64,000 bases of DNA from Candidatus Magasanikiibacteriota bacterium (GCA_021648085.1 JAKITS010000001.1:746759-810758); one strand, 5' to 3'; shown: positions 7,867-53,998, numbered from the stretch's first letter. Notes: a model not told the origin generated them from the letters alone. Numbers and translations: made by a program.

Positions 7867-8034
7867 TACACTTGTCCTAACTCCTAGAACTTCTTGGTTT
7901 GGTCTCACCGCATATTTCTTCGCCAAATTTCTGAGTTTCTTTTTTCTGTCCTTTTTTGAAACTATTTCATGATTTTGAGAACCATCCCATCTTCGAACAA
8001 TCCCCTCTTTAATCACGTCATCCTGAGCGAAGTC

Positions 8035-8157
8035 GAAGGATCTCGCTTTTGTATCACAAGACTTTGAATATTCACAATTCTGGTTATTCTTTTTCGAGAT
8101 ATTTCGACTTCGTTTCACTACGCTCAATATGACGTGTTTTTTACCGCCATTCTTTGA
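8035..8157. mobile_element. MITE family A copy (reverse orientation)
   Basis: CACGTCATCCTGAGCGAAGTCGAAGGATCTCG ... CGAGATATTTCGACTTCGTTTCACTACGCTCAATATGACGTG. Together with 8234-8376 it forms a tandem pair. Confidence 0.7.
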
Positions 8158-8233
8158 TTTAAAAATGTTCAAGCGATTCCTAACTTCGTTCGAAATGACA
8201 GAAATAAAACTTACTTTTGTATCACCATTCTTC

Positions 8234-8376
8234 CCGTCATCCTGAGCGGAATGGAACGAAGCGGAATGCAATCGAACGGATCTCGCTTTTGTATCACAAG
8301 ACTTTGAATATTCACAATTCTGGTTATTCTTTTTCGAGATATTTCGACTTCGTTTCACTACGCTCAATATGACGTG
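8234..8376. mobile_element. MITE family A copy (reverse orientation, tandem to 8035-8157)
   Basis: The internal 95 bp are identical to the copy at 8035-8157. Confidence 0.7.
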
Positions 8377-8770
8377 TTTTTTATTACTTCTTTTTTTCTT
8401 TGTTTTTGAAAGAAAATTTATATCATTCCTTTTTCTTTTTCCAAAACCAAAAGAACCACCAAGTTTCCTTAGGTATTTTTGTACTTTTTTATTTATTTTA
8501 TGAAGCACAATTCTTTTAGTTTATTTCCAAATATAAACAAATCGCCTCTGTTTAGAGCCATGTAAATATTATACCATTTTTTGAGCCTTTTTTTAAGACG
8601 CTTTCACGATAGTTATCCACATTTTTTACAATAAAAAATAACTCTTTTAAAAAGTTATTTTTTATTTTTATTTTAAACCCGTTTCTTATCACCAACAACT
8701 CATTTTTCTATTATGTTTAAACATTTTTATCTGTTTAATTCACTATTTTTTGTTTTGTGATACTTTCACG

Positions 8771-25842: not shown

Positions 25843-26517
25843 TTATTTAGCTAAACAAGAATATTCAGCACCAATATATGTTTTACAATCATCCCTCCCT
25901 ATAACACAAGGTTGGGTAGTTTCACACCTATATTTATTATAAATTTCACCTCTATCTGTACAAACTTTTTCTGCTTCTGTTATTGGAGTTTCAGTTCTTA
26001 TAATACTTTTACAAACACCATTAGGAGAGGTTCCTAAAACACAAAGAGAATCAATACATGTTTCACCAGAAGAACAATCTGAATTTTCTACACAAAATTC
26101 ATCAGCAAAAGGAAGATTGTTTATATTACCCCCTCCACCACCCACTCGCCCATCCAAACTACTAAAAATAAAACTAGTCAAAGCGTAAGATGCAAATACA
26201 ATTATAAGACCAATTACAGCTGCAATAATTGTATCTTTTGCTTTGTTTACAATGTCTTCTTTTCCGCGTGCGGTCATCCAAAGAAATCCACCGTAAACCA
26301 TTAAAATAAAAAATACAACTCCCACCAAAGAAAGTGCGCTTCCTATAATATTTCCCACCAAAGCTGTAAGATCGCTATTTCCTGCAAGTCCAGCGGCACT
26401 AGCAGTTTTGCTCAGCCCATAATCATCTGCCAAAACCAAAACTGGTGCAAACAAAATTGCACTAGCTCCAAACAAAGTCAAAAATTTTCTTGATAAAAGT
26501 TTACTTATTTTTTTCAT
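25843..26517 (-). CDS. T4SS-pilin-like module (N-terminal) fused to a C-terminal Cys-rich domain
   Basis: It has a signal-like N-terminus, then the pilin core VYGGFLWMTARGKEDIVNKAKD, then a poly-Gly linker and a domain of about 100 aa with at least 12 Cys (CVENSDCSSGETCIDSLCVLG ...). Confidence 0.6.
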   Translation of the reverse strand: MKKISKLLSRKFLTLFGASAILFAPVLVLADDYGLSKTASAAGLAGNSDLTALVGNIIGSALSLVGVVFFILMVYGGFLWMTARGKEDIVNKAKDTIIAAVIGLIIVFASYALTSFIFSSLDGRVGGGGGNINNLPFADEFCVENSDCSSGETCIDSLCVLGTSPNGVCKSIIRTETPITEAEKVCTDRGEIYNKYRCETTQPCVIGRDDCKTYIGAEYSCLAK

Positions 26518-26544
26518 AATTTTAATAAAAACAAAATTTTTATG

Positions 26545-26875
26545 TCATCCTGAGCGACAGCCGAAGGATCTCGGGAAAGCATCACAAGGTTTTAAATATT
26601 CAAAGTTTTAATGTTCTTGAATCGAGATATTTCGACTCCACTTCGTTCCGCTCAATATGACGTGACTGAATTTTGTCATTCTCAGCGGGAAAACATGATT
26701 AAAATACACGTCATCCTGAGCGAAGTCGAAGGATCTCGGGAAAGCATCACAAGGTTTTAAATATTCAAAGTTTTAATGTTCTTGAATCGAGATATTTCGA
26801 CTCCACTTCGTTCCGCTCAATATGACGTGACTTAAAAAACGTTATTCTAAATTCACTTCGCTCAATATGACATAA
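26545..26875. mobile_element. two tandem family A MITE copies (reverse orientation) separated by a family-B terminus fragment
   Basis: The sequence GTCATCCTGAGCGA ... CCGCTCAATATGACGTGACT is repeated twice, and TTTTGTCATTCTCAGCGGG lies between the copies. Confidence 0.7.
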
Positions 26876-27520: not shown

Positions 27521-28396
27521 TTAAAGTAAACAAGATACTAAAACGGTCTGTTCCCACAAAGACAAAACATCTCCATTTATAAGCTCCTTAATCCTTTCTA
27601 GATCTAAATAATCCACTACACATATTACAACATCAGAATCAACAGTCACACCACTATAATCACCAGCATAACAACTTTCTGCTTTTTTAATCTCTTGTGA
27701 TGTTGGTTTTCTTGTTGCATTTTTAATTTCTTCTGCTTCAGCTCCTCCAATTTCATTGGATACACAAGTTATAAGAGAAGACATTGATATATTTAAAGAT
27801 TTTTCTTCATTTTTTTTACTATTTCCCTCTCTTGTTTTACAACAAACAATGTTATTTCCACCTTTACACAAATTTACTTTACATGTATTTGGATTTTGTT
27901 CACACAAACCTCTATCCAAATCTACATCTTCAAAAGCTAAACTAGGCAAGTCGCATTCTCCTATATTCCTACAAGAAAACCCATCTCCAATGTCTTTACA
28001 GACAAGTTCTGGATTATTACCACCACCATTTAAAGAATCGCCAGTAATTCCAGATAATACCATATTAAGTATAGCATAACTAGAAAAAATAATGAAAAGT
28101 CCAACAACTGCATAAATCATAGTATTCCAACCCTTTTTTATCTTTTCTTGGTTGCCAGCAGAGGTCATCCACAAAAAACCACCATACATAAAAACAGCCA
28201 AAGTGACAGAACCTACAACACCCAAAGCAACCTTTACCCCACCTCCCAAAATTGTATTTAAATCTGTTCCTGCACCAATTGGATTTTCCAATTTAACTAT
28301 TTCTCCAGCTTGTGCAAAAACCTTATCTATATTTAAAAATAAACCAAAAATAGTAAAACTTATAAATGTGTATATTTTTTTAAAATCTTTTTTCAT
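27521..28396 (-). CDS. T4SS-pilin-like module (N-terminal) fused to a C-terminal Cys-rich domain
   Basis: The core is MYGGFLWMTSAGNQEKIKKGWN. The C-terminal domain is rich in Cys (VCKDIGDGFSCRNIGECDLPS ... CEQNPNTCKVNLCKGGNNIVCCK). Confidence 0.6.
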   Translation of the reverse strand: MKKDFKKIYTFISFTIFGLFLNIDKVFAQAGEIVKLENPIGAGTDLNTILGGGVKVALGVVGSVTLAVFMYGGFLWMTSAGNQEKIKKGWNTMIYAVVGLFIIFSSYAILNMVLSGITGDSLNGGGNNPELVCKDIGDGFSCRNIGECDLPSLAFEDVDLDRGLCEQNPNTCKVNLCKGGNNIVCCKTREGNSKKNEEKSLNISMSSLITCVSNEIGGAEAEEIKNATRKPTSQEIKKAESCYAGDYSGVTVDSDVVICVVDYLDLERIKELINGDVLSLWEQTVLVSCLL

Positions 28397-28455: not shown

Positions 28456-28733
28456 AAGTGGAGTGGAGTTGAAAATCAAAGCTCACGTCATATTGAGCAA
28501 AACGCAGTGGAGTCGAAATATCTCGATGCTGTATTATTAGAACTTTGAATATTTAAAACCTTATTATACACTCCCGAGATCCTTCGACTTCGCTCAGGAT
28601 GACGTGATGGAAAGGTGATACTATCCCGAGATCCTTCGGCTTCGCTCAGGATGACGTGATGGAAAGGTGATGCTATCCCGAGATCCTTCGGCTTCGCTCA
28701 GGATGACGTGATTTTTTAATCACACTATATTGA
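28456..28733. mobile_element. family A MITE copy followed by a tandem array (2.7 x 52 bp) of the R half-site unit CCCGAGATCCTTCGGCTTCGCTCAGGATGACGTGATGGAAAGGTGATRCTAT
   Basis: The tandem units lie at 28573-28624, 28625-28676 and 28677-28713. Similar two-unit arrays occur at 39105-39205, 25395-25440 and 49730-49790. Confidence 0.65.
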
Positions 28734-30966: not shown

Positions 30967-31902
30967 TTATTTAAATGCTTGAAATATAAAATTTACAAGT
31001 GCATAACTAGAAAGTATAACCAAAATTCCAATACTCGCCCACACAAGTGTATCCATTGCTTTCTTTTGTCGTTCCGAATTTCCATGAGCTGTCATCCACA
31101 AAATACCTGCGTAAATGAAAATTATCAAAGCCAATGTTCCAACTACTCCCATTATAGTTTTGATAACTCTTCCTATTAAAGCCGGAATATCTGTTCCAAG
31201 TTTATTTAAAGATTCAGCAGGCGGAAGCTTAAATGGTGTTTCTTTTTCATCTTTTGGTGCTGGTGGCGTGGGTGGTTTAGTTGCAGAATAAAAAGCTACA
31301 GAATGATCTTTCGCACAATTATAGCTTCTCTGATATTTTTGTACCAAATCTTGACAATCTGATGCTGTATTACAAGTCTTTTTTTCATCTGCACAATATT
31401 TAAAAAATGGATCTTTAGATGGTACACATACTTGAGAATTAGGACAAACACCTGTTTGCTCACATGATTGTGTGGCTGCTAAAAAACAAAAAAAATCTTC
31501 TTGTTTAATCTGACAATTATTGATTTCAGCTTTATAATAATAATGAAGAAAAGCCGTATCCTCTATAAACCCTTCAATGTTTGTATTATCACATGAACTC
31601 TGATCTTTAATTATTTTTTGCGAAAATAATATTATATTATTTACTATTTGCGGTTTATAAGGATAACAACTATTTTCGGGTATCATATTATTAATCATAT
31701 CAACAAAAGAAAACCCCTTATTTATAATAAATTTAGTTCCTGGATGATTTTTTGTACAATCTTGACCTGGAGAAGATGTAGATGATGCTGTTTTACCTGA
31801 TAAGTTAACATCACAAACACAATCCTCTGCTTTAACATTCCCACCAACAAAAAACACCCCAAAAACAACAAATCCTAAAATTAAAAACCTAAAATTCCTC
31901 AT
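30967..31902 (-). CDS. Cys-rich domain (N-terminal) fused to a C-terminal T4SS-pilin-like module
   Basis: The signal/TM start MRNFRFLILGFVVFGVFFVGG is followed by a Cys-rich domain of about 200 aa (EDCVCDVNLSG ...), a PPTPPAPK linker and the pilin core IYAGILWMTAHGNSERQKKAMD with a final TM helix. Confidence 0.55.
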   Translation of the reverse strand: MRNFRFLILGFVVFGVFFVGGNVKAEDCVCDVNLSGKTASSTSSPGQDCTKNHPGTKFIINKGFSFVDMINNMIPENSCYPYKPQIVNNIILFSQKIIKDQSSCDNTNIEGFIEDTAFLHYYYKAEINNCQIKQEDFFCFLAATQSCEQTGVCPNSQVCVPSKDPFFKYCADEKKTCNTASDCQDLVQKYQRSYNCAKDHSVAFYSATKPPTPPAPKDEKETPFKLPPAESLNKLGTDIPALIGRVIKTIMGVVGTLALIIFIYAGILWMTAHGNSERQKKAMDTLVWASIGILVILSSYALVNFIFQAFK

Positions 31903-38805: not shown

Positions 38806-39090
38806 TTAATCCCCAAACAAATCTCTCATTTCTGGATTTAATTTTTTAATTAAATTTAGTTTTTTAGCACGCACCCAACCTTTCAATTGTTTTTCACGTT
38901 GAATAGCATATAATGAACTATCGTGTTCTTCAAAATATAAAAGTTAATTTATATTATATTTTGCAGTAAAACTATTTTTGTCTTTTTTATATTTATGTTC
39001 TATTGCTCTTCGTTCTAGTTTATTTGTAATACCAATATAATATACTGTTTTGCGAGAGTTGGACATTATGTAAACATAAAATTTTTTCAT
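38806..39090 (-). pseudogene. GIY-YIG nuclease family (UPF0213-like) gene interrupted by a single in-frame TAA at 38944-38946
   Basis: The minus-strand translation is MKKFYVYIMSNSRKTVYYIGITNKLERRAIEHKYKKDKNSFTAKYNIN*LLYFEEHDSSLYAIQREKQLKGWVRAKKLNLIKKLNPEMRDLFGD. It shows GIY ... YIG and the conserved R/E/K pattern of small GIY-YIG proteins in a single frame. Confidence 0.6.
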
Positions 39091-39206
39091 AATTATATTC
39101 TGGTGATTTTATCCCGAGATCCTTCGGCTTCGCTCAGGATGACGTAACGGAAAGGTGATACTTTCCCGAGATCCTTCGGCTTCGCTCAGGATGACGTGTG
39201 GAAAAT

Positions 39207-42200
39207 TTAAATAGCAGGAACTGTATCTACAGCCACAGGTTCTATCACTGGAGCAGGCTCTACCACAACCACTGGTTCTGGAATTGGTTCTTCTACAATT
39301 GGCTCAGGAATCACAGGTTCTGGTGTCGGTTCTATAATAGGCTCCGCAACAACAGGCTCAGGAGTTGGTTCTGGTACAGGCTCTATTAGAGTTGGAGTAG
39401 TCGTAGGTGTTTCCACGACAGGAACAGTTGTAGTTGGTGTTTCTACCAGAATTTCAGGTGTTGTTGTTGGGGTTGAAGTAGGAACTATAGGCTCTGGAAT
39501 TGGCTCTACTACCACAGGAGCTGGTCCAATTCTACGGCTAGCGATTACAACCCAGTCAAAAGTCGCATTACTTGTTCCACTTTGAAGTTCTTTTACGGTA
39601 AACCCGCTCACATCTTTTTGGCTTACAAAAATTCCATTTGCCTCGGCTGTAAGAGTAATAGAAACTTTAATTGGCTTGTCTGCATCTATAATTTCGCTTT
39701 CTACCGCGCTAAATAAAACTTTAAACTCACCATCTACCAAAGTTCCAGATCCAGAATATATGAGTTCAGTATCTTGAGATTGAAGCGCGTACAAATTCTT
39801 GTCTCCTTCTGTTGTTATAATCTTTGTAATAAATCTACCTTCCACATCTACACTCCATGTATTATCTATAGCTATTAGGCTTCTTACATTTATAATAGAA
39901 AAGTTATTTAAATTTAGATCATTTGAAATTGGCAAAATACTACTTCCGCTTGGTACTACTGTCAATTGAGATGGGTCTGCTTGAATATTTATTGCGTTGT
40001 CTTGAGCTACAGAAATTAAGTCTTGTTGCATTTGAGCGATAGTTTGGTTCTTATTATTTACCCAACCAGTTTTGATAAGTCCCATTATTTTTCCAGTTGA
40101 AGTTGTAAGTGAATCTAGTGCAATTCCCACAATTCCCACCACATTGTCGCCAGTGTCTTTTGTAGGATCATATCTCATAGCATGCCCTGGGACAGAAGCG
40201 GTAATGAGTAAATCTCCACGCTCAATTTGTCCATTTTCTGCACTTACTTTAATAGGAACACGACCAACCATTGCCATTACTGCGGTATGTTGTGTCTTAC
40301 CATTACCTACTGTAATTGTAGGATTTGTAGAAACCACACCCGCCACTTCTTGCACATAAGAACCTTGGCTTTTTGTATACATATCACTAGAACTAGAATC
40401 TACCACTAAAACATCTCCAGCTTCTACAATATAAGCTGGGTTTATATCTACTCGCTCTGCCAAGTCTCCCGGTGCTCCTGGAGTACCAACTGTTGCAGAA
40501 GATGCAAACAATTGTCCAGCAGCGCGAACAGTACCATCTCCTTCTACAGAGAATTTTGCAGTTCCGCCAGTTCTTACAGAAAATAGATAATCACCTGGAG
40601 AAGTGAAAGCTGTATCTGTGTCAAAAATATGTGCTGCGTCTGGAATAGAACCAGCTGTAAATGTAATTGCACCTCTTAATATTGTTTTGGTAATACTTGC
40701 ATTACCCAAAGTTACAGAATTACTTCCGTTTCCTGTTGTGGTATGTCCTATCACTATTTCATTTGTATCTCCACTCGCAAAGGCTCTTGTGTTATACCCA
40801 AGATAAAGAGAGTTGGTTGATGTTGCATTTGCTATTGAACCACCAGTTATAGATCTACCCGCCCCATAACCAACGGCTGTATTATCATCTCCTGTAGTAT
40901 TTGAAGAGAGAGCATATGAACCAAATCCAGTATTATTGTCCCCTGTGGTGTTAACCATAAGAACTGAACTACCTATTCCAGTATTATCAGTACCTATTGT
41001 ATCCCTAAGAGTTTCTGTACCAAATGCTGTATTTCCAGAAGTACTAGTAACAGACTTTAAAGTATTAAACCCAACTGCTGTATTATAGAATCCGGTAGTA
41101 TGGCCTTCACCTGAATTTATACCTACGAAAGTATTATAATATCCTTCAATTCCTGAAGTATTAGACAAATTAGTCCCCCCATCTCCTATTATCAATGAGC
41201 CTGTCATTGCGGTTGGGCGGTAAAGGACAACTGTTCCATCCAATGCTACTTTTCCTGATATGTCTAGTGCATAGCTAGGAGTAGTAGTATTTATTCCCAC
41301 AAATCCTGTTGCAGGTCTTAGGTTTAAGTCTCCATATCCTGTGTTGATACTTGCTACTTCACTTTCTACTTCGAATACTGATATGTCGTCAAATTCAACA
41401 TAACCTGTGGAAGCTGATTGCCCCAACACAAGGCTTGTCCCTCCTGCTCCTACAAAGGTTATATCGAAGTATTGCCAATCTGTTGAACTTGTTCCTGTCC
41501 ATAAACTAGATGCAAAATTCACAACCCTAGGGGCATTTGTTCCATTACCTCTTGCCCAACCTGTAAGTCTATATGTTTTTCCAACCACTATTATTGACTG
41601 AAAAGCTCCAGCATTTGCAATTCCTGTTCCTGCTACTCTTAATATTTGCAGTCCACCATGAGGATTAGTTGTTTCTTTTGTTATTGTAGGAAAAGATGTT
41701 TCACTCCATTCCCCAACTCCACTCTTTTCCATATCCCCATCAATCAATACACTCTTTCCATTCAAAGTAAGCTCATTCCCCATATTTATAGTCCTAGAAA
41801 CATAAGCATTTCCATCTACTTCCAAATTATAATTTGCTGTTGTTGTGTTTATTCCCACATATCCTGTTGCAGACATCAAATTTATATCTCCAGCTCCAGT
41901 ACTGATAGTTCCGTCTGTTTGATTGTGATACATTTCTATATATTGAGTTTTTGATGTCGCAGCCGCTGTTGCAGAATAAACTCTAAAATGTGTATTTGTA
42001 GTAGTTGCAACAGAATAATCATTAGTTTTATTTGCATTCGCAACAACACTAATGCCATAATCATTTCCTCCAGCTATAATATTTAAAGATTTATATAAAC
42101 CAGCAGCATTTGCGCCATATAACCCAGGATTTGCAACAGAAGCCCCAAAATAAATTGGTTTGAAATTCATTAATACTTGGTCGTACATTGATATTGCTCC

Positions 42201-45200
42201 AAGCGCAGAATCCAAAACTAAATACCCTTTTCCTGTTGTTATATATCCATTTGTTTGATCGTGGGTGAGGCTTAACCACTCAGATGTACTTTGATTTGCA
42301 GAATGGATGAATACTGTTGGGTTTGTTTGTAGGGTGTGAGAGAAATTATAAGTATAATCATTAAGCTCTGATATTAATATTGAATTGGCTGTTATGCCTG
42401 TATGTAATGTGACCGATGGTAACGTTTGAAAACTATTTCCTGGCATAATAGAACCATAAGCTGCTGTTGATCTTATATCTTTATTTTGTGTTATATATGT
42501 TATGCCCGCAATAAAAGTATTTCCATCAAAATAAGCAGCCCCATCAACCTCAAGTTTTCCACTTACAAATAAATCGTCATTTGCATTTAATGTGTGTGAA
42601 GTAGAACCAGCATCACCAATTACTGTAATTCCTGTTGTGTCTGGGATTAAGTTGATATCATAAGCTCCATAAGTAATCAGATTTAATGAATCTGCGTCCA
42701 GACCAAGCCCTCCTCTTGTTGCTGAATTATACATAAAAGCTATACCAATTTGACCTGCGGCATTAATTGTAAGCGGAGTTATTGTGGTATCTGTTAGAGT
42801 TGTAATCATAAGAGCTCTTGCACCCGGATCCCAATTTGTCCCAGCAGCAGTAATATCCAAAATTGTATTTGTATTTCCCAAAGTAGGAGTTTGAGTAAGA
42901 GAAATCATTGGTGAGGTTTGGTTTATTCCAGCAATATTCAAAGTTCCGTCAAAATATGAATCCCCATTTACACCCAATTTATCATGTACATAAAAGTCTT
43001 GCCCGTTCATCACAAAATTTGCGTCTGCGATAGATTCAGCAGGGGAACCTACCAAGAAGTTGCTCGTTATATATGAATCCACCGAAGATGTTGCGGAAAA
43101 AACAACCCTCCCATTATTAGATTCATCTATCAAATTAATTTGACCATATCTTCCATTTCCACCCGCACCAATTCTAGCTGATATAGAACCATTATTTGCT
43201 CTAAATGTTATTTGTGCATTTCCATTTGTATCATAAAATTCACCTGTTCCTTCTCTATTTATTACAAAAACATCAGAGCCAGCTTCTGTTATTTTAAATA
43301 AGTTTGAAGTCCCAAATGAATTTGTATTAAATGTAAATGCAGTATCGCTAGCGCTAGCATCTGTAAGGTTCGATGTAAACAAAGTCGAACTTGCAAAAGT
43401 TAAAGTTGAGGAGTTTGTGCCGTTGCTCATTCCAAAGTTTCCGTTTAATAACAACCCACTTCTTCCAATACTCAAACCTCCTTTGATGTCTACTCCATTC
43501 TCAAAACGAGAGAAATTGAATACCTGCAAATTGTCAATTTGTGCTGTACCTATCTCTGTATTTGAGATTGTTGCTCCTGTGATGTCTATTATTAATAAAC
43601 TATCATTTGAAGTGGCAGTCTGATAAACATAATTTCCCTTTAATGCCAATCCACCAGGTCCAGACACACTTAGAGACGAAACAATTGATAAATTTGATTT
43701 ATCTGTTATGTCTATTATTTTTAGTGTAGCATTAGAATAAGTTGACACATAAGCATAATTTCCTGAAATTTCTATATGTTCAGGTGCATATAAATCTGCT
43801 GTTCCTGGTTTAAAAATAGATATTGTAGTTGGACTTTCTGGATTTGAAACATCTACTACAGCAATACTATTATTACTAAAAGCTGTAAGATATGCATAAT
43901 TTCCTACAACTCTTACATCACGCGTACCATCCAAATCTCCACCAACTCCATTTGGTTGATAAGTTGAGACAAGCGAAGGATTGTATGGATCTGAAATATC
44001 TGCTATTACCATTTTATCATTCACAGAAGTTGTCAAATATGCATAATTTCCTACCACATCAAAACCAAACATATTTGTTAAAGTTCCACTTGCATTAAAT
44101 GTAGAGACCAAGGTTGGATTATATGGATCTGAAATATCTACTATTGTCATTTTTCCTCCTAATAATGCTGCAATATATGCATAATTCCCTACTATTTTAA
44201 TCGTTCTTGCTCCATTTAAATCCCCATTTAATCCTCCTGGTTGAAAAATTGCTGTTGTGGTTGGACTTGCTGGATTTGTTATATCTATTATTACAAGTTG
44301 ATCTTTATCATAAGAAAGAGCATAAGCGTAATTATTTGCAATAGCAACATCTGATATATTATCCAAATCTCCATTTAAACCTCCAGGTTGAAAAATTGCT
44401 GTTGTGGTTGGACTTGTTGGATCTGCAATATTTATTATTACAAGCTGATCTTTCGCTCCAGCGCTAGTATAAGCATAATTACCAGAAATTCTTACTTTAG
44501 ATATTCCATCCAAATCTCCATTTAAACCCCCAGGTTGAAAAGTACTTACTATTGTAGGATTTAAAACATTACCTTTTGTTAAAGTCTGCCCAGCAAAAGT
44601 AGAGGCGCCACTTATATATGCAGTTCCACTTACTGTTAAACCATAACCAGGTGTTGTTGTATTTATTCCCACAAATCCTGTGGCAGGTCTTAGGTTTAAG
44701 TCTCCATATCCTGTGTTGATACTTGCTACTTCACTTTCTACTTCGAATACTGATACATCGTCAAATTCTACATATCCTGCACTGGTACAATCAGACTCTA
44801 AAAAAATGCTTGCCCCTGCTGCAACAAATGTAATATCAAAGTATTGCCAAGTTGTTGATGTTGTTCCATTCCACTGTGCAGTTGCATTTGGAGAATCTAT
44901 ATTAGGTTTGAACGTCCCATCACCCCTCGCCCATCCTCTAACCCTGTATTTCTTACCACTCGTAACGATACTTTGAAAAGCTGAAGGTTGATTAGTACCA
45001 TTGTAAGCTATTCTTAAGTTTTGAACTCCTGTGACTGGGTCTGTTGTTTCTTTTGTAAGAATTGCATTTGAACCTACAGCCCAAGCACCTACCCCATCAG
45101 TCTCCATATCCCCATCAATCAATAGACTCTTTCCATTCAAAGTAAGCTCATTCCCCATATTTATAGTCCTAGAAACATAAGCATTTCCATCTACTTCCAA

Positions 45201-48200
45201 ATTATAATTTGCTGTTGTTGTGTTTATTCCCACAAATCCTGTTGCAGACATTAAGTTTATATCTCCAGCTCCAGTACTGATAGTTCCGTCTGTTTGATTG
45301 TGGGTGAGGCTTAACCATTCAGATGTACTTTGATTTGCAGAGTGAATGAATACTGTTGGGTTTGTTTGAGCTGAATGAGCAAAATCATATCCTCTATCTG
45401 CTGTTTGTGTAAAAATAATTGAATTAGCCACATCATCCAATCCCCAAATCATAGTATCTACAGTTTGACCTGTCGACCAATCTAATCTTGAATCTTGAGA
45501 ATTACCAAATTGTAATTCTGTGTTATTCAACATTACAATATCTCCATTCGCACCAATAGTTGTAAGACCATCAAAAACAGCTGTTGAGTCAAAATAAGCA
45601 GCCCCATCAACCTCAAGTTTTCCACTTATAAATAAATCGTCATTTGCATTTAATGTGTGTGAAGTAGTCCCAGCATCACCAATTGTGATAACAGTTGAAT
45701 TTCCTATTATTTGATCTACTCCTGTGATGTCATTTCCTGCCAACGACATTACACCACCCAATGTCACACCTGCTGTAAATGAAGCGGAACTATCAAAAAA
45801 TGAATAGCCGTCAACCTCAAAAGCTCCACTTACAAACAAATCATCATTTGTGGTTAGATCATGACTGTCTGTTCCAGCGTCACCAATTGTCACATTATTT
45901 AAATTTCCTATTATTTGATCTACTCCTGTGATGTCATTTCCTGCCATCAAAATATTCCCCCCCATTGATAAAGTACTTGCGATATATGCTGTTCCGCTTA
46001 CAGTTAATTTATATCCAGGTGTTGTTGTGTTTATTCCTACATTGCTACCAAGAATAGTCATTGCCTCATTGCCACCACCATCCGCAGAATTTGAAACAAA
46101 GAACCGCATTCGTCCTTTTTCAGCGCCAGCAGTCATATCTTGATTTAGCATCAGGATTGAACCATATTTAGTGCGTGTACCTACTGAATTTGCTAAGAAG
46201 TATTCAATACCAACATTGTTTAAACTATTATATTGTGAACCATCAAGATTTATTTTAGTTTTATTTACTGATGTACTCTGTATATCCAATATACTTTGCG
46301 GTGTAGAAGTTCCAATACCTACATTACCAGCAGCTAATATCGTCATTTTTGGAGAATTATTTGTCCTAAAAGTCAAATTGTGGTTGCTAACCGCTCCCAT
46401 AAAAACATTGGACCCGCTTGCATTTGTTCCAAAACCCCCTTCAACATCATTTGTAGTATCTCTGAAAATCATTAAACTATTTCCAGCATTGTAAAAACCA
46501 GCTTGTGCTGTAGTCCCAATTGGTGTTTCAGGAGTACCCATAGTGAAAAGATGATTTGGTATATTTGTCCCAATACCCACATAACCAGCATTATCAATTA
46601 TCATTCTATCTTGTAGTACAGCACTACTATCAGCTGTGCTAAATTTCATCCAACCACCATTTACACTTGCACTTCTATCTTGAACGAGAATTGACCCTTT
46701 TATAGCATTATTATAACCACGAAAATTAAGTGTTGGTTCATATGGACTAGCAGTTGATCCAGCAGACCCTTTTGTACCAATAGATATTGCAGCGCCACCA
46801 CTAGCTTCAACATTTAATTCATTAGTTAAAGTAGAAGTTGTTCCTATTCCTACATTTCCCTTTAGGAAAGTGTCAGTAATATTATCATTCCCCAAAGTAA
46901 CGGAATTACTTCCGTTTCCTGTTGCGTCGTATCCTATTACTATTTCATTTGTGCCACCATCTGCGAGTGCTTTTGTGTTATAACCAAGATAAAGAGAATT
47001 ATTTCCATTTATATTTGCTGATGTACCATTTGTTAAATATCTACCAGAACCCCAACCTAAAGCTGTATTATTAGATGCTACATTTGCATATAAAGACGCT
47101 CGTCCTATTACTGTATTACCACTTCCTCCTATATTAGCTGCAAGAGCAACAAAACCAATTACCACATTTTGATTTCCTATAGTCAATGCCTTAGCAGTAT
47201 TATAACCAATTAAGGTATTTTCAAGACCTGCTGTATTTGCACTTCCAGATCCAAGTCCTACAAAAGTATTATAATATCCTTCATTTCCAGTAGTATTTGA
47301 CAAATTTGTTCCTCCATCTCCTATTATCAATGAGCCTGTCATTGCGGTTGGGCGGTAAAGAACAACTGTTCCATCCAATGCTACTTTTCCTGATACATCT
47401 AGTGCATAGCTAGGAGTAGTGGTGTTTATTCCCACAAATCCTGTTGCAGACATTAAGTTTATATCTCCAGCTCCTGTTGAAATTACTCCATTTGTTTGGT
47501 CGTGCGTTAAGCTTAACCATTGAGTATTATCTGAATCTGGATCTGTGGCAGAATGTATAAATATTGTTGGGTTTGTCTGATTTCCATGGTCAAAACTTTT
47601 TGTCTGATTTCCAACTTTTGTAAATACTATTGATTGTGAATTTGTACCCAAAGCCCAAATTAAAGTTTCTGCTGTTGCTTCATTTGTGCTCCAGTCCAAA
47701 AATGAATCACTAGATCCACCAAAAGTTATATTTCCGTCATCCAACATAAATAAATCTGAAGTTGAAAGCCTTCCATCAAAAAACGAATTACCATCTACTT
47801 CTAGCCTACCACTTACAAATAAATCATCATTTGTGGTAAAAGCACGACTAGAACTTCCGGCATCTCCAACTGTAATATATGTTGAATTTCCTATTATTTG
47901 ATCTACTCCTGTGATGTCGTTTCCTGATAATGCCAAATTTCCACCTAAAGTGGATAAACCACTAATATACGTAGTACCGCTCACAGTAAGAGCGTAGTTT
48001 GGTGTACTTGTTCCAATTCCAAAATTTCCAGTTCCAATTACTACATTTTGGTTGTTTGTTGTATTTAAACTTAATGTACTTGCCGAATCTATTGTAAGAG
48101 CTCCACCAGTCATTGAAATAACTCCACCGTCCACATCGCCATTCAAGTGAAGTGTGCTAGTTCCAATATATAAATCGTTTTCAATAAATACTGCGTTTCC

Positions 48201-49280
48201 TACTCCAAGCATATCAGCCACATACATATCATTTCCACTCAAAGCAAATGTTGAAGTTGTAATAGCTTCTGAGCCAGTAGTTCCAATAAACAAGTTCTGA
48301 TTTATATAAGAATTACTATCAGCAGATAATTTAATTCCTGTTAAATTTGTACTTTTTTTAATATAAAGAGAACCTGCTTGATTTAACGCACCAATATAAT
48401 TAGTAACATAATTAGATGCTTGAGATATTTGAAATCCAACACTATTACCATTTTGAACTTTAAGATGTGCTCCACCAGAAGTTTCACCTTGTACTGTCAA
48501 GCTTGTAGTGTCGTTACTTACCACTTTCAATAAAACATTTGAATTTGTAGAAGTTCCAACCTCCATACTTCCTGCGAGAAATCCATCTCCGTCTTCGTCT
48601 ACTCGGAATTTTTCTGCGCCGTTTAAAGCTATTCCAAACAAAGTTTCATTTGCATCGGCAGAAGCAGGATTGATATAAACCAAACCACCACTCACTCCGC
48701 TAGATTGAGGATCGCCAGAAAAAGTTAAGTTTCCGTTTGAATCTGAGAGAGGAATGTAAACCGAGCTAGAAGCAGTCGCGGTCTCGTAGCCCATAAGGTA
48801 TTTACTGTTCATTGCAAAAGGCGATGCTGTGATTTGTTTTCTAGGAGAAAGTGCAGTGCCATCTACCCAAACTTCCAAGTAAATTGTTGAATTATTTTTA
48901 AAAATCGTAGAATCTATACTATTTGTAATTCCTGATCCCAAATCTACAGAGAAAATACCTTGGCTTGGTGTTATAGAAACTGTAGAAGTACTTGCCAAAG
49001 TTCCACCAGCAGTATAAAGCAAACTTCCTCCGCTAGATGCGTCGTAAAGCAAAAATGCCATTGATTTTGTAGTAGTCACAGAAGCACCGCTTTCCAAAAG
49101 TTTACCTTGATAAGAAATGATAGTTGGCGGAGTTGCAGTTTTTACTGTATTGGTTAGGAGGAGGCCTCCTAAGACAAAAAGTGAAATTAGAAAAGCAAAA
49201 GCAAGCCGTGTAAAGGCCATTTTTGGCAATCTAAAGAGTTTAGTTTTTACAACCCAATTACTTTGTGGCATGTTTTTCAC
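39207..49280 (-). CDS. giant surface protein (3357 aa): N-terminal TM anchor, Gly/Thr/Asn-rich beta-helix-like repeats, two copies of a CBM-like module, LVIVD beta-propeller repeats, C-terminal Pro/Glu-rich (PEPV) tail
   Basis: The N-terminus is MKNMPQSNWVVKTKLFRLPKMAFTRLAFAFLISLFVLGGLLL. LVIVD repeats are present (GNYAYTSAGAKDQLVIINIADPTSPTT ... DKDQLVIIDITNPASPTT ...). A module of about 170 aa ending VEFDD(V/I)SVFEVESEVASINTGYGDLNLRPATGFVGINTTTP is duplicated. The C-terminus is PEPIVPTSTPTTTPE ... PEPVVAEPIIEPTPEPVIPEP. Confidence 0.75.
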   Translation of the reverse strand: MKNMPQSNWVVKTKLFRLPKMAFTRLAFAFLISLFVLGGLLLTNTVKTATPPTIISYQGKLLESGASVTTTKSMAFLLYDASSGGSLLYTAGGTLASTSTVSITPSQGIFSVDLGSGITNSIDSTIFKNNSTIYLEVWVDGTALSPRKQITASPFAMNSKYLMGYETATASSSVYIPLSDSNGNLTFSGDPQSSGVSGGLVYINPASADANETLFGIALNGAEKFRVDEDGDGFLAGSMEVGTSTNSNVLLKVVSNDTTSLTVQGETSGGAHLKVQNGNSVGFQISQASNYVTNYIGALNQAGSLYIKKSTNLTGIKLSADSNSYINQNLFIGTTGSEAITTSTFALSGNDMYVADMLGVGNAVFIENDLYIGTSTLHLNGDVDGGVISMTGGALTIDSASTLSLNTTNNQNVVIGTGNFGIGTSTPNYALTVSGTTYISGLSTLGGNLALSGNDITGVDQIIGNSTYITVGDAGSSSRAFTTNDDLFVSGRLEVDGNSFFDGRLSTSDLFMLDDGNITFGGSSDSFLDWSTNEATAETLIWALGTNSQSIVFTKVGNQTKSFDHGNQTNPTIFIHSATDPDSDNTQWLSLTHDQTNGVISTGAGDINLMSATGFVGINTTTPSYALDVSGKVALDGTVVLYRPTAMTGSLIIGDGGTNLSNTTGNEGYYNTFVGLGSGSANTAGLENTLIGYNTAKALTIGNQNVVIGFVALAANIGGSGNTVIGRASLYANVASNNTALGWGSGRYLTNGTSANINGNNSLYLGYNTKALADGGTNEIVIGYDATGNGSNSVTLGNDNITDTFLKGNVGIGTTSTLTNELNVEASGGAAISIGTKGSAGSTASPYEPTLNFRGYNNAIKGSILVQDRSASVNGGWMKFSTADSSAVLQDRMIIDNAGYVGIGTNIPNHLFTMGTPETPIGTTAQAGFYNAGNSLMIFRDTTNDVEGGFGTNASGSNVFMGAVSNHNLTFRTNNSPKMTILAAGNVGIGTSTPQSILDIQSTSVNKTKINLDGSQYNSLNNVGIEYFLANSVGTRTKYGSILMLNQDMTAGAEKGRMRFFVSNSADGGGNEAMTILGSNVGINTTTPGYKLTVSGTAYIASTLSMGGNILMAGNDITGVDQIIGNLNNVTIGDAGTDSHDLTTNDDLFVSGAFEVDGYSFFDSSASFTAGVTLGGVMSLAGNDITGVDQIIGNSTVITIGDAGTTSHTLNANDDLFISGKLEVDGAAYFDSTAVFDGLTTIGANGDIVMLNNTELQFGNSQDSRLDWSTGQTVDTMIWGLDDVANSIIFTQTADRGYDFAHSAQTNPTVFIHSANQSTSEWLSLTHNQTDGTISTGAGDINLMSATGFVGINTTTANYNLEVDGNAYVSRTINMGNELTLNGKSLLIDGDMETDGVGAWAVGSNAILTKETTDPVTGVQNLRIAYNGTNQPSAFQSIVTSGKKYRVRGWARGDGTFKPNIDSPNATAQWNGTTSTTWQYFDITFVAAGASIFLESDCTSAGYVEFDDVSVFEVESEVASINTGYGDLNLRPATGFVGINTTTPGYGLTVSGTAYISGASTFAGQTLTKGNVLNPTIVSTFQPGGLNGDLDGISKVRISGNYAYTSAGAKDQLVIINIADPTSPTTTAIFQPGGLNGDLDNISDVAIANNYAYALSYDKDQLVIIDITNPASPTTTAIFQPGGLNGDLNGARTIKIVGNYAYIAALLGGKMTIVDISDPYNPTLVSTFNASGTLTNMFGFDVVGNYAYLTTSVNDKMVIADISDPYNPSLVSTYQPNGVGGDLDGTRDVRVVGNYAYLTAFSNNSIAVVDVSNPESPTTISIFKPGTADLYAPEHIEISGNYAYVSTYSNATLKIIDITDKSNLSIVSSLSVSGPGGLALKGNYVYQTATSNDSLLIIDITGATISNTEIGTAQIDNLQVFNFSRFENGVDIKGGLSIGRSGLLLNGNFGMSNGTNSSTLTFASSTLFTSNLTDASASDTAFTFNTNSFGTSNLFKITEAGSDVFVINREGTGEFYDTNGNAQITFRANNGSISARIGAGGNGRYGQINLIDESNNGRVVFSATSSVDSYITSNFLVGSPAESIADANFVMNGQDFYVHDKLGVNGDSYFDGTLNIAGINQTSPMISLTQTPTLGNTNTILDITAAGTNWDPGARALMITTLTDTTITPLTINAAGQIGIAFMYNSATRGGLGLDADSLNLITYGAYDINLIPDTTGITVIGDAGSTSHTLNANDDLFVSGKLEVDGAAYFDGNTFIAGITYITQNKDIRSTAAYGSIMPGNSFQTLPSVTLHTGITANSILISELNDYTYNFSHTLQTNPTVFIHSANQSTSEWLSLTHDQTNGYITTGKGYLVLDSALGAISMYDQVLMNFKPIYFGASVANPGLYGANAAGLYKSLNIIAGGNDYGISVVANANKTNDYSVATTTNTHFRVYSATAAATSKTQYIEMYHNQTDGTISTGAGDINLMSATGYVGINTTTANYNLEVDGNAYVSRTINMGNELTLNGKSVLIDGDMEKSGVGEWSETSFPTITKETTNPHGGLQILRVAGTGIANAGAFQSIIVVGKTYRLTGWARGNGTNAPRVVNFASSLWTGTSSTDWQYFDITFVGAGGTSLVLGQSASTGYVEFDDISVFEVESEVASINTGYGDLNLRPATGFVGINTTTPSYALDISGKVALDGTVVLYRPTAMTGSLIIGDGGTNLSNTSGIEGYYNTFVGINSGEGHTTGFYNTAVGFNTLKSVTSTSGNTAFGTETLRDTIGTDNTGIGSSVLMVNTTGDNNTGFGSYALSSNTTGDDNTAVGYGAGRSITGGSIANATSTNSLYLGYNTRAFASGDTNEIVIGHTTTGNGSNSVTLGNASITKTILRGAITFTAGSIPDAAHIFDTDTAFTSPGDYLFSVRTGGTAKFSVEGDGTVRAAGQLFASSATVGTPGAPGDLAERVDINPAYIVEAGDVLVVDSSSSDMYTKSQGSYVQEVAGVVSTNPTITVGNGKTQHTAVMAMVGRVPIKVSAENGQIERGDLLITASVPGHAMRYDPTKDTGDNVVGIVGIALDSLTTSTGKIMGLIKTGWVNNKNQTIAQMQQDLISVAQDNAINIQADPSQLTVVPSGSSILPISNDLNLNNFSIINVRSLIAIDNTWSVDVEGRFITKIITTEGDKNLYALQSQDTELIYSGSGTLVDGEFKVLFSAVESEIIDADKPIKVSITLTAEANGIFVSQKDVSGFTVKELQSGTSNATFDWVVIASRRIGPAPVVVEPIPEPIVPTSTPTTTPEILVETPTTTVPVVETPTTTPTLIEPVPEPTPEPVVAEPIIEPTPEPVIPEPIVEEPIPEPVVVVEPAPVIEPVAVDTVPAI

Positions 49281-49934
49281 AATTCACAGAAAATATATAA
49301 ATTCGGCCCAACAAGCTAAACCGCGAAAAACTCTTCCACGGACGAGGACTACCCTCTTTGGGTTATTTTCTGCGTACTAATAAAAAACATTTGTAAACTT
49401 AGAGTATATTGTATTCTTGTAATTCTATCTCGAGACCCTTCGGCTTCGCTCAGGATGACATACTAGAAAAACACTTTTTATCTCAGTAAAATAGCTGACT
49501 GAGCTAAAATAGTTTTCTAGCTATACTCTTACTATATTTTAACATAAAATGAAAGATTTTTCACACACAAACTGTGGATAAGTTTTATACTTTTTTTCTT
49601 CCTTAGGAAATATTATTTAAAAACGCTTTTTTATAGTAGAATAAGCTATAAAAATAAAATTAGAAAAATATATTTTTTGGTGTTTTTTGTATATTATGCT
49701 TCGCTCCGTTCGGGGGATGACGTGATGGAAAGGTGATGCTGCCCCGAGATCCTTCGGCTTCGCTCAGGATGACGTGAATAGTTTCTGTCTCATGCTATAT
49801 GTATCGTATCTCATAATTATTTTTATTTTTAATTTAAAAACTTGACATATAAAATTAAAGGTTCTAAAATTTAAATACCGCTCATTTACAATATTTTACA
49901 CAGATGTTTTGTGTAAAAAAAGGAGGAATTCAAA

Positions 49935-50357: not shown

Positions 50358-50545
50358 TTTATTCACGTCATATTGAGCGGAACGAAGTGGAGTCGAAATA
50401 TCTCGTGTTTGTTTCACTATTTTATGTTTTGGTGATACTTTCGCGAGATCCTTCGGCTTCGCTCAGGATGACATATTTTTATTTACGTCATATTGAGCGG
50501 AACGAAGTGGAGTCGAAATATCTCGTGTCTATTTCACTACTCCCG
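50358..50545. mobile_element. family A MITE full copy plus an adjacent L half-site
   Basis: TCACGTCATATTGAGCGGAACGAAGTGGAGTCGAAATATCTCGTGTTTGTTTCACTATTTTATGTTTTGGTGATACTTTCGCGAGATCCTTCGGCTTCGCTCAGGATGACAT, then a repeated L half. Confidence 0.7.
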
Positions 50546-53500
50546 TCTCAAAACATCGTCACTTTTTTTATGCAATTTTTCTCCTTTTTTCTTCATTTTT
50601 TGCACCCATTTATTTTCTTTATTTTCCATTTTAATTTTCTTTTTTTCTAATCTTTTTTCTACACTTCCTTTTTCAATAACTTTTTCACTTTTTTTGTGCA
50701 ATTTCTCTCCTTTTTTCTTCATTTTTTCTGCCCATTTATCCTTCTTTTCCATTGGTTTTTGAGCTGCTTCAAACTTCACAAAACCTTCTTTTGGATTTCC
50801 ATGCTCATCTACTTTTTGTGCCGAGTGAATAGCTTTATTTGCACCAGATTCTAAAACAACATTTTTACCAATAAATCCTTCTTTTTTAATTTCAGCGCTC
50901 AAAATATCTTCTGTTTTTGTGTTTTTAAATCCAACCTTTTCAAAAGTCACATAATAATCACTTGGACCAACCAAAAATGCATAGCGTCCTTTTGTGTCTG
51001 TAATTCTTGTTTCAATAAGTTTATTAAATTTCTTTGAAAACAAACGAGCCACAGCTTTTCCAATAGGTTTTTTATTTGATTTCTCGGATACAATCCCCCA
51101 ACCAGTTGGCTCTTTTGGTTTTATAAATCTATTAAATCCAACATATAAGCCTATTTGAATTACCAAAAATACTCCAATATACCATTCTGGTGTTATATAT
51201 AATGCCAAAGCCGTACCTAAAACACCAAGCAAAGAAATAGCGTGCTGCAAAAATACCAAACGCCCACGCCAAACAATTTTCCAAGGAATATGTTCTTTTT
51301 TACCTGAAAATTCAATTGGTATGCTTGGTGTAATTACAGTATCTTCTTCTGTCACTTTTATTGACTCACCGTGATAAACATCAAAAAATTCTCCATCTTC
51401 TTTTTTTCCTTTTAACAAACTAGATGGAAATTTGAAACCGCTTTTTGAAATTTGCATTAAGTATTCTCCAGGATCCGCAATAAACAAAAACCTACCTTCT
51501 CTGTCTGTCACTCTAGATTGAATAATTTTGTTTGTCTTTGCATCGAGCAAGCGCACAGTCGCTAAGTCAACAGGAAGCTTTGTAAGTGCATTGTAAACAA
51601 CCCCCCACTTTTTCCTCTTCCTCCTCCAAAACAAAAGTACTGGCTGGAAAAATATAAATCTAAATAGTGGTATTGCAGTAGTCCACAAAGATGGAATGAC
51701 AGCTGCAGCAGAAACACCAATTACACTTGGAGCCACAATAGTTTTAGTTAAAACTTCTATCTCTGGATCATCTGCTAACTGCTCCACTTTCAGAACTGCT
51801 TCGCCAAAAAATTCTGACAACACCCTACTTTGTTCTATAAATTTATCATTCAAATTTTCTGCAACATTTTTTATATTTTCCAAAACTGGAGCGTCTGGAT
51901 CTATAACATCTATCAAAGGCTTTGGCTTTTTAATTAAAGTTAAGTTTCTATTTACAATTCTATTTGCAACCACAAAACTCAAGGTCTCTTTTGGTCTATA
52001 TCCATCTCTTTGTGCCACAACTTTATACTGACCTGGAGGCACTATAAATGCATATGCTCCTCCTGCACTCGTAGACTGCGGATTTACCTGTCTATAGTTT
52101 GATGACGCCCACACCTGCTCCCCTGTATCCATATCAAGCAATGTAACACTTGCGTCTATTAAAATTTCTCTAGAAATATTGTCTCGTACCACACCATAAG
52201 GCAGTGAGTTTAATTCAAAACTACTAGAATCAAAAGTGCCGTCTGAAAACTCAATTTCTACATACGCAGAATACACACCAATTTGTGGCGTCACAAAATC
52301 CGAATAATACCAACCGTCTGAACTATCAAAATTGAAATTATATGAATTTCCCGCAACTTTCAAATCTATATTATCTACATCTTTCAAAGCTAAAGCTGAT
52401 TCTGATATTCCAATTGTGGTGTGATCGCCAGACAATGCACTAAGCACTCCTCCAATTAAAGTTGTATCTATTGTTCTCTCCGAAAGCCAAAAAAACAAAC
52501 TAGACTGTGGTAATTGCTCTCCAGACCCAACCGTGTCTGCTGGCGGATTGTACTCTTCTGTGTCATTTTTATTTTCACAACCCGGATCTTGCAAATCTAC
52601 TAGACCATCTCCATCATTGTCTAACCCATCATCACAAGCTGGACCCAAAGCAATACAAGCACTATTAGACGAACAATCCAAATCTGAGCAATCCACCGCA
52701 CCATCATTATCATTGTCTATTCCATCGGTACAGATCTCAACTCCAAGCGCGCAAGATGGTTCACTAATACATTCCAGATCTGCACAATCTGTAAAACCGT
52801 CGTTATCATTGTCTATTCCATCGGTACAAATCTCAACTCCAGAAATACAAACAGGCTCAAGTGCACAATCTATATCAGCGCAGTCGGTAGTACCGTCCAA
52901 ATCATTGTCCAAACTATCTGTACAAAAATTTACTTCACTATCCAAATGAGGAATAGCGGAAGCCGACACACCTGCACTATAATTTCCAGATGTATCAAAA
53001 ACAAAAATTGTATAAAAATATTCTGTCAAATTAGTTCGTCCTGTATTCAATAAACTCACACTATTTGGATTTGAAATCCTCATTATCTCTACTCCTTGAG
53101 TTATATTTGAAACAGGCGAAAGCCCACGACGAACCATAAAGTAATCAAAATCACTCAAAGAAACTGTATAATCCCAATTTAACTGGATCTGTCTATCTGC
53201 CCCAACCGCAGAAAAATTGGAAATATCAGGTGGTGGCGTAGTATCTGAAAGTGTTTCAAAAGAACTTATATGCGAAACCGTATTTCCCGAAGGGTCAATA
53301 CAAGAAATTTTGTAATAATACCTTGTATTTGGAAGTAAATTTCCAAAAGAAGATTCATAATATTGCCCACCAACATTGAAAGCACTGGCTGAAAGATCGA
53401 ACGGCTCTAGCGAATCATCCAGATCGTAACCAAAACTACACGAATCCACCAAAACATTATCCACTGCTGACCAACTTACATCTGCTGTTGTTAAATCAGA

Positions 53501-53998
53501 CACCACGCTTACACTAGAAATTACTGGTGGCTCATTTTCTCTTGTTGAAAAAATATCTGTTGAAACACTAGAATTACCAGCCAGATCTGCACAAGTAATT
53601 TTGAAAAAATAAAGTGTACCGGGTAATAAAGAAGTTAAATTTGAAGAATAATTTCCACCAACACCAGTCGCAGAAGCTGTAGTTCCATAACTTGAAGATA
53701 ACCCATACTCAAAATCACAATACAATACTCCCACATCATCAGTAGCACTCCACGAAACAGTAGCAAAAATATCCAACGCAGAAACGGAAACCGAAGAAAT
53801 AATTGGCGAAGCAGTATCTACAGGAGGATCTGGCGGATCTGGAATAACAACAGTATCCTCTTCGCCACCAGCATAATTTGCATTTACAGAAACAACCCCT
53901 GTTTCTGTGTCTGCCAAAACAACAGAAAATCCAGAAAAAACAAAGGTAAACAAAAATATAAAAAAAGTAAGAACTAATTTTTTAAAAAATTTAATCAT
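50537..53998 (-). CDS. large multi-domain surface/membrane protein (1153 aa): signal peptide, FN3/Ig-like domains, Cys-rich DGxDNDxDG (TSP3/dockerin-like) repeats, carboxypeptidase-regulatory-like (transthyretin-fold) domains, internal TM segments, Lys-rich repetitive C-terminus
   Basis: The signal is [49 protein letters not shown] occurs three times. CarbopepD_reg-like segments are present ([45 protein letters not shown]). The C-terminus carries [11 protein letters not shown] twice, encoded by a tandem DNA repeat abutting a MITE. Confidence 0.55.

Follow-up and report, generated by a model that had tools for sequence, protein, structure and literature searches.

The MAT (mosaic adhesive trimer) fibres of Bdellovibrio and the S74-type tail fibres of phages share the capping-loop consensus V-G-G/N-pi-x-x-P-x-x-x-L (Caulton et al. 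2024, PMC10769870), and in the distal tail fibre gp37 and the adhesin gp38 of T-even phages recombination between conserved motifs (His boxes and glycine-rich motifs) swaps or duplicates the segments that confer specificity, according to PMC3157838, which cites Tetart et al. (1996, 1998). Phage tail-fibre/gp38 adhesin genes and the mosaic MAT fibres appear to be the closest functional analogues of a giant gene that we describe here from a Candidatus Magasanikiibacteriota bacterium (GCA_021648085.1 JAKITS010000001.1:746759-810758). The gene is a single minus-strand open reading frame (ORF) of 3357 amino acids (aa; 39207-49280, about 10 kb) within the window, the whole 64,000-nucleotide stretch that was analysed. 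It is best read as encoding a modular, phage-tail-fibre-like (MAT-like) protein of a bacterium of the Patescibacteria (candidate phyla radiation, CPR), with display at the cell surface predicted from sequence. Our analysis indicates that this is probably a MAT-like fibre adhesin of anciently duplicated modules, whose border islands have been kept or made alike by recent intragenic recombination. Fibre adhesins of mosaic build whose evolution proceeds through recombination at conserved joints are already known; the gene would be a new, uncharacterised example. Host recognition and attachment in Patescibacteria are little understood, and the gene represents an uncharacterised family at a conserved chromosomal position.

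Chunked self-BLASTP of the protein resolved three paralogous arrays of fibre modules, which, like all other parts of the gene, are on the minus strand. Array 1 (aa 323-810; 46851-48314) has the order X-B-C-E and is a paralogue of array 3 without the C-CBM unit (CBM, carbohydrate-binding module). Array 2 (aa 1100-1573; 44562-45983) reads B-B-C-junction-CBM1-junction, and array 3 (aa 2068-2872; 40665-43079) reads X-B-C'-C-junction-CBM2-junction-E. Beta-helix fibre segments with capping-loop motifs (aa 810-1101; 45978-46853) separate the first two arrays. The arrays flank a single-copy LVIVD beta-propeller (aa ~1570-1900; 43581-44573) and most of the mid region that follows it (aa 1900-2068; aa 1570-2068 with the propeller), which is also largely single-copy; the X unit of array 3 overlaps its C-terminal end. 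Conserved N-terminal (aa 1-200; 48681-49280) and C-terminal (aa 2900-3250; 39531-40583) domains lie outside the arrays. A hydrophobic segment, read by eye from the translation, is found at the N-terminus (aa 21-45), and the protein ends in a proline-rich tail. The propeller matches LVIVD (PF08309) in Pfam with 138.5 bits against a cutoff of 20.2, in seven stretches that correspond to a seven-blade propeller; its 147-nt blades are 61-80% identical.

Self-BLASTN and a repeat search revealed five pairs of in-frame direct repeats, 84-221 nt long and 90-98% identical, with every copy inside the giant ORF. Island 2b (41728-41927 and 45103-45302; offset 3375 nt) is 98% identical (196/200; E = 1e-97) and encodes HNQTDGTISTGAGDINLMSATG(Y/F)VGINTTTANYNLEVDGNAYVSRTINMGNELTLNGKS, which comprises the end of module C, a capping loop, a linker and the first strand of the CBM. 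Island 3 (41270-41407 and 44642-44779; offset 3372 nt) spans the last CBM strand through ATGFVGINTTTP and is 93% identical over 138 nt, or 84% over 231 nt when extended. Island 1 lies in the B module (42526-42621 and 45589-45684; 96.9% over 96 nt; offset 3063 nt), and island 2a pairs module C' (42246-42329) with the C module of array 2 (45285-45368; 92.9% over 84 nt; offset 3039 nt), encoding QTNPTVFIHSANQSTSEWLSLTH. Island 4 (41122-41342 and 47257-47477; 90.5% over 221 nt; offset 6135 nt) runs from a capping loop into the start of module E, and its high copy is the C|E junction of array 1. All five offsets are multiples of 3, and the peptides GWARG(D/N)GT and VEFDD.SVFEVESEVASINTGYGDLNLRPATGFVGINTTTP are present in both module copies. 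Chance can be excluded, because 20 off-diagonal high-scoring segment pairs were observed and none in 20 codon-shuffled versions of the gene. A sequence-only reading of this DNA had already reported near-identical intragenic repeats; these are real, with coordinates right to within ~15 nt and off-diagonal segments above 90% identity (90-98%) in the self-comparison, and the segment it noted at 47390-47480 belongs to the 221-nt repeat at 47257-47477. Its description of the repeats as perfect has to be given up, as the longest exact runs are 109, 73, 47, 40 and 23 nt. A plus-strand ORF of 102 aa (41646-41954) overlaps island 2b; it is probably spurious, because the other copy of the island carries no plus-strand ORF of at least 100 aa.

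Codon-aware alignment of the module copies (~0.9-1.1 kb each; aa 1200-1573 and aa 2221-2697) showed islands of 93-100% nucleotide identity with stretches of 40-65% between them. Nei-Gojobori estimates of synonymous divergence (dS) are 0.095 for the island at aa 1200-1232, 0.071 at aa 1326-1392, 0.31 at aa 1504-1547 and 0.28 at aa 602-675. They reach saturation in the CBM core (dS 1.69, with a nonsynonymous divergence, dN, of 0.47) and in the body of the C module (aa 1233-1300; dS 1.90), a contrast of more than 15-fold. Where the amino acid is the same, the same codon is used at 94 of 102 positions in the islands and at 23 of 51 in the core (Fisher p = 3e-10), and the longest run of identical codons, 44, was reached in none of 20,000 permutations. 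Constraint on the protein does not account for this: the capping-loop peptide VGI(G/N)T..P recurs at aa 810, 901, 987 and 1081, and these copies have only 31-51% of nucleotides in common with any other junction copy. Saturated dS between the islands, codon identity within them and the failure of protein-level constraint thus indicate that the module duplication is old and that just the borders are young. The two CBM copies resemble each other (58-66% aa identity) more than they do any of the database matches inspected (up to ~57%).

The islands coincide with two motifs at module borders, LTH(N/D)QT(D/N)G-I-(S/T)TG and ATGFVGINTTTP-x-Y-x-L-x-V-x-G, the second of which aligns to capping loops of the Bdellovibrio MAT fibre Bd3182 (PDB 8OJN). 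At both motifs the similarity changes partner abruptly. The low copies of islands 3 and 4 overlap at 41270-41342 in a three-way chimeric joint. Upstream of ~41300, a stretch of 90 nt matches the junction at aa 1537 (the CBM end) with 87-100% identity; downstream, a stretch of 165 nt matches the one at aa 616, where module E starts, with 80-100% identity. The change falls within ATGFVGINTTTP. Similarly, the C module of array 2 pairs with C' of array 3 up to SLTH (register +1013 aa; 75-100% identity) and with C of array 3 from NQTDG on (register +1125 aa; 100% identity). This register change lies at ~45299-45311, inside SLTH|NQTDG, and beside it the high copies of islands 2a and 2b overlap (45285-45302). 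Such sharp in-frame partner switches at two conserved motifs are what one would expect module borders to retain after unequal crossover or short-tract gene conversion.

A mechanism is proposed in which anciently duplicated modules (B, C, the putatively glycan-binding CBM_4_9-like domain and E) would be joined at the two conserved border motifs. Homologous recombination between these paralogous modules of one gene, by short-tract gene conversion or unequal crossover, would keep or make the borders alike while the module interiors diverge to saturation, and the same recombination at the joints could yield chimeric junctions as well as the gain, loss and exchange of modules. The sequence-only reading had pointed to the repeats as recombination substrates, and in-frame direct repeats of this kind are indeed long enough; from their offsets, recombination between the present islands is calculated to give in-frame products short of 1013-2045 aa. 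Size variation may be going on within a population. Recombination at the joints would also explain why members of the family differ so much in the content and length of their middle part.

The island-core-island pattern and the chimeric junctions match T-even gp37/gp38, where divergent binding segments likewise lie between short conserved motifs that serve as joints for swapping or duplication. Unlike the phage exchanges, which occur between genomes and were shown experimentally, those proposed here would take place between paralogous modules within a gene known from one sequence. Neisseria pilE/pilS and Borrelia vlsE similarly show patchy identity, in short converted tracts with conserved sequence at their edges, although in the giant gene both the donor and the recipient sequence would belong to one expressed ORF. 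Antigenic variation by cassette gene conversion was rejected, as no silent donor cassettes lie outside the gene within the window; nowhere else in these 64 kb, on either strand, is there DNA similar to that of the gene. As in the size-variable alpha C/Rib-family adhesins of Gram-positive bacteria, RecA-dependent recombination could add or remove in-frame direct repeats within the gene, and in the relatives this likeness extends to one gene with 216-nt tandem units of 98.5% identity. The repeats of the giant gene, unlike those of alpha C/Rib, are scattered at spacings of 3-6 kb, do not exceed 221 nt and lie at module borders only, with no long tandem arrays of identical whole repeats. The class of tandem-repeat size-variable adhesins was set aside for the giant gene, in which the near-identical pieces are dispersed borders and the tandem units (LVIVD blades, B-B) are merely 55-80% identical. 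Inversion of the shufflon type was likewise rejected, since all repeats are direct and in frame and no meaningful inverted repeats occur in the gene; the sole inverted pair, 33 nt at 76% complementarity, is consistent with chance. Phase variation, which had been suggested from the sequence, finds no footing for the same reason, and because the repeat scans reported no simple-sequence tract and the 64 kb hold no other copy.

The likeness to MAT and S74-type fibres extends to architecture. Residues 967-1098 align to Bd2133 (8OND; E = 2.3e-6) and to the tip of Bd3182 (8OJN; E = 1.9e-6), where the alignment spans both capping loops (VGIGTstP... and VGINTttPgYkLtVsG). The pattern [VI]G[IV][GN]T..[PAT] occurs nine times in the giant protein, and beta-helix units closed by capping loops, as in MAT/S74 fibres, are recognizable at the sequence level. 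The mosaic layout, with a conserved presentation end, varied binding domains and lectin/CBM-type domains on a fibre, also recalls MAT proteins, as does encoding in the cellular genome of a bacterium likely dependent on other cells. In contrast to MAT/S74 fibres, the giant protein is 3-4 times longer and lacks the Peptidase_S74 chaperone; its CBMs and LVIVD propeller are inserted mid-fibre, and both ends are conserved around a variable middle, whereas MAT proteins vary at the C-terminal tip. The fibre would be a trimer; the junctions have pLDDT values (predicted local distance difference test) below 50 in the AlphaFold2 (AF2) model of the monomer. PHROGs gave no match to the protein at E up to 0.01, and no significant sequence match to the N- and C-terminal domains was found in the PDB. 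Fold searches with the C-terminal domain returned weak matches to C-terminal domains of phage tailspikes and tail fibres (3SUC, 1.1e-3; 7EEA, 1.3e-3), based on a mediocre AF2 model (mean pLDDT 66).

The sequence-only reading had also described a duplicated protein module with a CBM-like domain, and structure prediction bears this out. Against CBM_4_9 (PF02018), whose gathering score is 25.9, copy 1 (aa 1383-1517; 44730-45134) scores 25.8 bits (E = 1.5e-5) and copy 2 (aa 2508-2641; 41358-41759) 21.7 bits (E = 2.7e-4), both slightly below it. The AF2 model of aa 1383-1517 has pLDDT values mostly above 90, and the top Foldseek matches in the PDB are CBM16 (2ZEY), CBM22, CBM61 and CBM4 (E 4e-7 to 7e-6; probability 1.0; target-normalised template modelling score 0.5-0.73), which together identify the beta-jelly-roll fold of CBMs. 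Database homologues of the domain are short proteins of tandem PF02018 domains, and 23 of 43 carry a precomputed PF02018 match. The CBM_4_9-like modules may bind glycans, and the two cores would be the likeliest carriers of different specificities.

The comparison between species was built on the C-terminal domain, which finds 43 close loci in GTDB genomes; those with a named lineage belong mostly to Candidatus Magasanikbacteria or to unclassified Patescibacteria. About half of the 43 share the gene order of the window, orf301-CarboxypepD_reg-fibre-YchF-methyltransferase. Complete genes at this syntenic position encode 727 to 3816 aa. The N-terminal domain is 48-61% identical across 18 complete relatives and the C-terminal domain 44-57% across the 43 loci; many relatives also keep the LVIVD propeller and the mid region, and the domain order (N-terminal, LVIVD, mid region, C-terminal) is the same. 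The B, C, junction and CBM modules are in none of the relatives compared. The family combines conserved ends with a highly variable, lectin-rich middle, and its fibre building blocks are common to Bdellovibrio prey-recognition fibres and phage tail fibres; the repeat pattern suggests that the middle is rebuilt through recombination at module borders. Searched with the island peptides, GTDB genomes yielded no relative, and a metagenome scan turned up only distant genes with single module types. In such unrelated metagenome genes the modules are combined differently, with four CBM copies in one (L006), two C modules in another (L009) and B, C and junction together in a third (L010). Intragenic repeat units of high identity that are again bounded by NVGIGTTTP-type motifs were observed in L023, L050 and L051, and long contigs of relatives (255 and 771 kb) carry the same kind of motif-bounded repeats. 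In the literature on giant genes in Patescibacteria we found nothing specific to this family.

Some of these loci deserve individual mention. Two genomes whose contigs are long each carry two giant paralogues of 2546-3229 aa, ~13 kb apart (L023/L024 on CAWJAS010000001.1 and L029/L051 on CAWDHY010000002.1). In L023 the 216-nt tandem units are bounded by NVGIGTT(T/S)P. L029 contains a 399-nt repeat of 99% identity at an offset of 740 nt, which may span a real start codon or a frameshift because this offset is not a multiple of 3. One syntenic relative (L005, 3584-8781) is split into two adjacent ORFs separated by 62 nt, one of 1158 aa with the N-terminal domain and LVIVD and one of 552 aa with the C-terminal domain; the split may be real, with two separate genes, or may reflect a frameshift or an error of sequencing. 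Several loci (L016, L018, L020, L022 and many 'MAG TPA_asm' entries) are titled 'uncultured Gammaproteobacteria bacterium'. Their fibre genes end in the same C-terminal domain, their YchF shares 64-68% identity with that of the window and their synteny is that of the Magasanikbacteria MAGs; the titles are probably mislabelled. In the metagenome-assembled genome (MAG) JBAZKA01, three contigs (1, 9 and 4; L056, L057 and L059) break within the shared C-terminal domain, at query residues ~101-140, which suggests that paralogous fibre genes break the assembly at a repeat common to them.

Several points weigh against the border-recombination reading. There is a single sequence of the gene; look-ups of the exact product with three alternative start codons gave no match, and no close strain was found in genome or metagenome collections, so no recombination event has been seen directly and no copy-number polymorphism shown. 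A younger duplication in which the CBM core was later replaced would look the same as conversion of an old one, and misassembly or polishing could have affected the repeats, which we regard as improbable for the reasons given below. For the Fisher test, the limits of the islands were picked with the identity profile already in view, a problem from which the run-length permutation is free. As regards the likeness to MAT, the NCBIfam model NF053851 (Bdello_MAT_N) matches weakly (13.8 bits, E = 0.037; cutoff 60), and Pfam at E up to 1 detects no Peptidase_S74 domain in the giant ORF. With capping-loop/beta-helix units present, the N-terminal model far under its cutoff and S74 absent, the protein would belong to the MAT family in part.

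Among the alternatives, a fairly recent duplication of C-junction-CBM-junction survives best. In this scenario the CBM core and the upstream C body of one copy would then have been swapped for a divergent allele of another gene or genome, with the borders as homology arms. This is consistent with borders of 93-98% identity on either side of a CBM core of ~55%, with the tandem arrays of such CBM domains that exist in other genes, and with phage tail-fibre/gp38 adhesins, which PMC3157838 reports to evolve in this way, with conserved motifs flanking hypervariable segments. Nevertheless we consider it unlikely: no donor was found, the 64-kb window holds no similar DNA elsewhere, the two cores are nearest to each other among the database matches inspected, and at least two separate replacements would be needed. 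Such cassette replacement is in any case a variant of the favoured explanation, with the same joints and machinery, and no true opposite.

An assembly or polishing artefact, in which cross-mapped paralogous reads or a graph misjoin inflated the likeness of the islands or produced a wrong order or number of modules, is improbable. The 109-nt exact repeat is within the range that confuses short-read assemblers, and contig ends cut 18 of the 43 homologous genes (a count without a baseline for genes of this size), with JBAZKA01 as a further case of breakage in the C-terminal domain. The intact ORF is no proof of correct assembly, because a misjoin at in-register repeats would keep the frame open. 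However, the copies are 90-98% and not 100% identical, with mismatches particular to each pair, and polishing would be unable to turn ~55% identity into 98%. The domain order, moreover, agrees with relatives, whose 255- and 771-kb contigs show similar motif-bounded repeats. That the repeats are an assembly hazard, as the sequence-only reading had warned, is plausible because contig ends cut so many relatives; since such genes are often broken in MAG assemblies, fibre gene length and module count in short-read bins are not to be trusted without long reads.

Explanations that dispense with recombination are less credible again. The islands do coincide with structurally important motifs, and direct selection on DNA or mRNA (translation pausing, RNA structure or a binding site) could hold them alike; yet where the same peptide motif recurs its DNA is not conserved, and the partner switching at the joints would be left unexplained. 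The cores might instead be hypermutated, for example by a diversity-generating retroelement (DGR). DGRs are reported to be common in CPR genomes. The divergence of the core, however, extends over ~330 nt and all codon positions with dN/dS ~0.28, and a DGR target is unlikely because the mismatches between copies show no adenine bias and a Pfam scan of 31 window ORFs, among them 27 of the 39 that reach 120 aa, detected no reverse transcriptase domain.

Scarcely credible is one recent segmental duplication of ~3.4 kb with the near-identical stretches as its remnant: the repeat pairs do share offsets of ~3.37 and ~3.05 kb and the CBM copies are closer to each other than to the database matches inspected, but one contiguous duplication cannot yield the pattern, because the interval contains single-copy sequence (the LVIVD propeller and the larger part of the mid region), because dS is 1.7-1.9 in the CBM core and C-module body against 0.07-0.1 in the islands, and because the offsets (3039, 3063, 3372, 3375 and 6135 nt) differ and switch within modules. 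This duplication had been the sequence-only proposal; 3.4 kb is instead the distance between the two ~0.9-1.1-kb copies, and the word recent suits the islands (best dS 0.07-0.10) and fails for the stretches between them (40-65% nucleotide identity).

A wider proposal on the conserved locus is rather doubtful. The Magasanikbacteria locus orfX-CarboxypepD_reg-fibre-YchF might encode a host-recognition fibre of presumed episymbionts, a cellular counterpart of phage and MAT fibres, in which the coding sequences of the capping loops double as recombination joints for glycan-binding CBM and propeller cassettes. If so, cassettes could be duplicated, deleted and exchanged within and between genes, which would reprogramme host range and generate the observed five-fold range of lengths between species.

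Elsewhere in the window, the gene upstream of the fibre gene (50537-53998, minus strand) encodes a predicted surface protein of 1153 aa with CarboxypepD_reg and SdrD_B-like domains; the order of this gene, the fibre gene, YchF and the methyltransferase gene is conserved across Magasanikbacteria MAGs. A second predicted surface protein (1588-8508, minus strand; 2306 aa) carries eight LVIVD repeats, five Pur_ac_phosph_N domains and fn3 domains.

An intergenic repeat, GATCCTTCGGCTTCGCTCAGGATGAC, occurs at 22 sites in the window at up to 3 mismatches (0 expected), 18 of them on the plus strand. Copies are found beside the giant gene, just past its stop (39118-39143 and 39170-39195) and upstream (49434-49459, 49748-49773 and 50447-50472), and in a tandem triplet at 28578-28707. 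They form part of larger elements, 95-150 nt long and 90-99% identical, such as the pairs 26544-26667 and 26710-26832, or 8033-8143 and 8272-8383. The repeat looks like a family of the REP (repetitive extragenic palindromic) or MITE (miniature inverted-repeat transposable element) type that brackets many genes. It has no match in Rfam, and the pair of copies downstream of the giant gene folds no better than shuffled sequence (z = -0.46). Adjoining two copies is a 48-aa ORF (38944-39090, minus strand; MKKFYVYIMSNSRKTVYYIGITNKLERRAIEHKY...), which looks, by eye and motif search, like the N-terminal half of a small GIY-YIG nuclease. Three T4SS_pilin/TrbC-like genes (PF18895, E 2e-7 to 8e-10; 25843-26517, 27521-28396 and 30967-31902, all on the minus strand) cluster near a solute-binding protein and further copies of GATCCTTCGGCTTCGCTCAGGATGAC.

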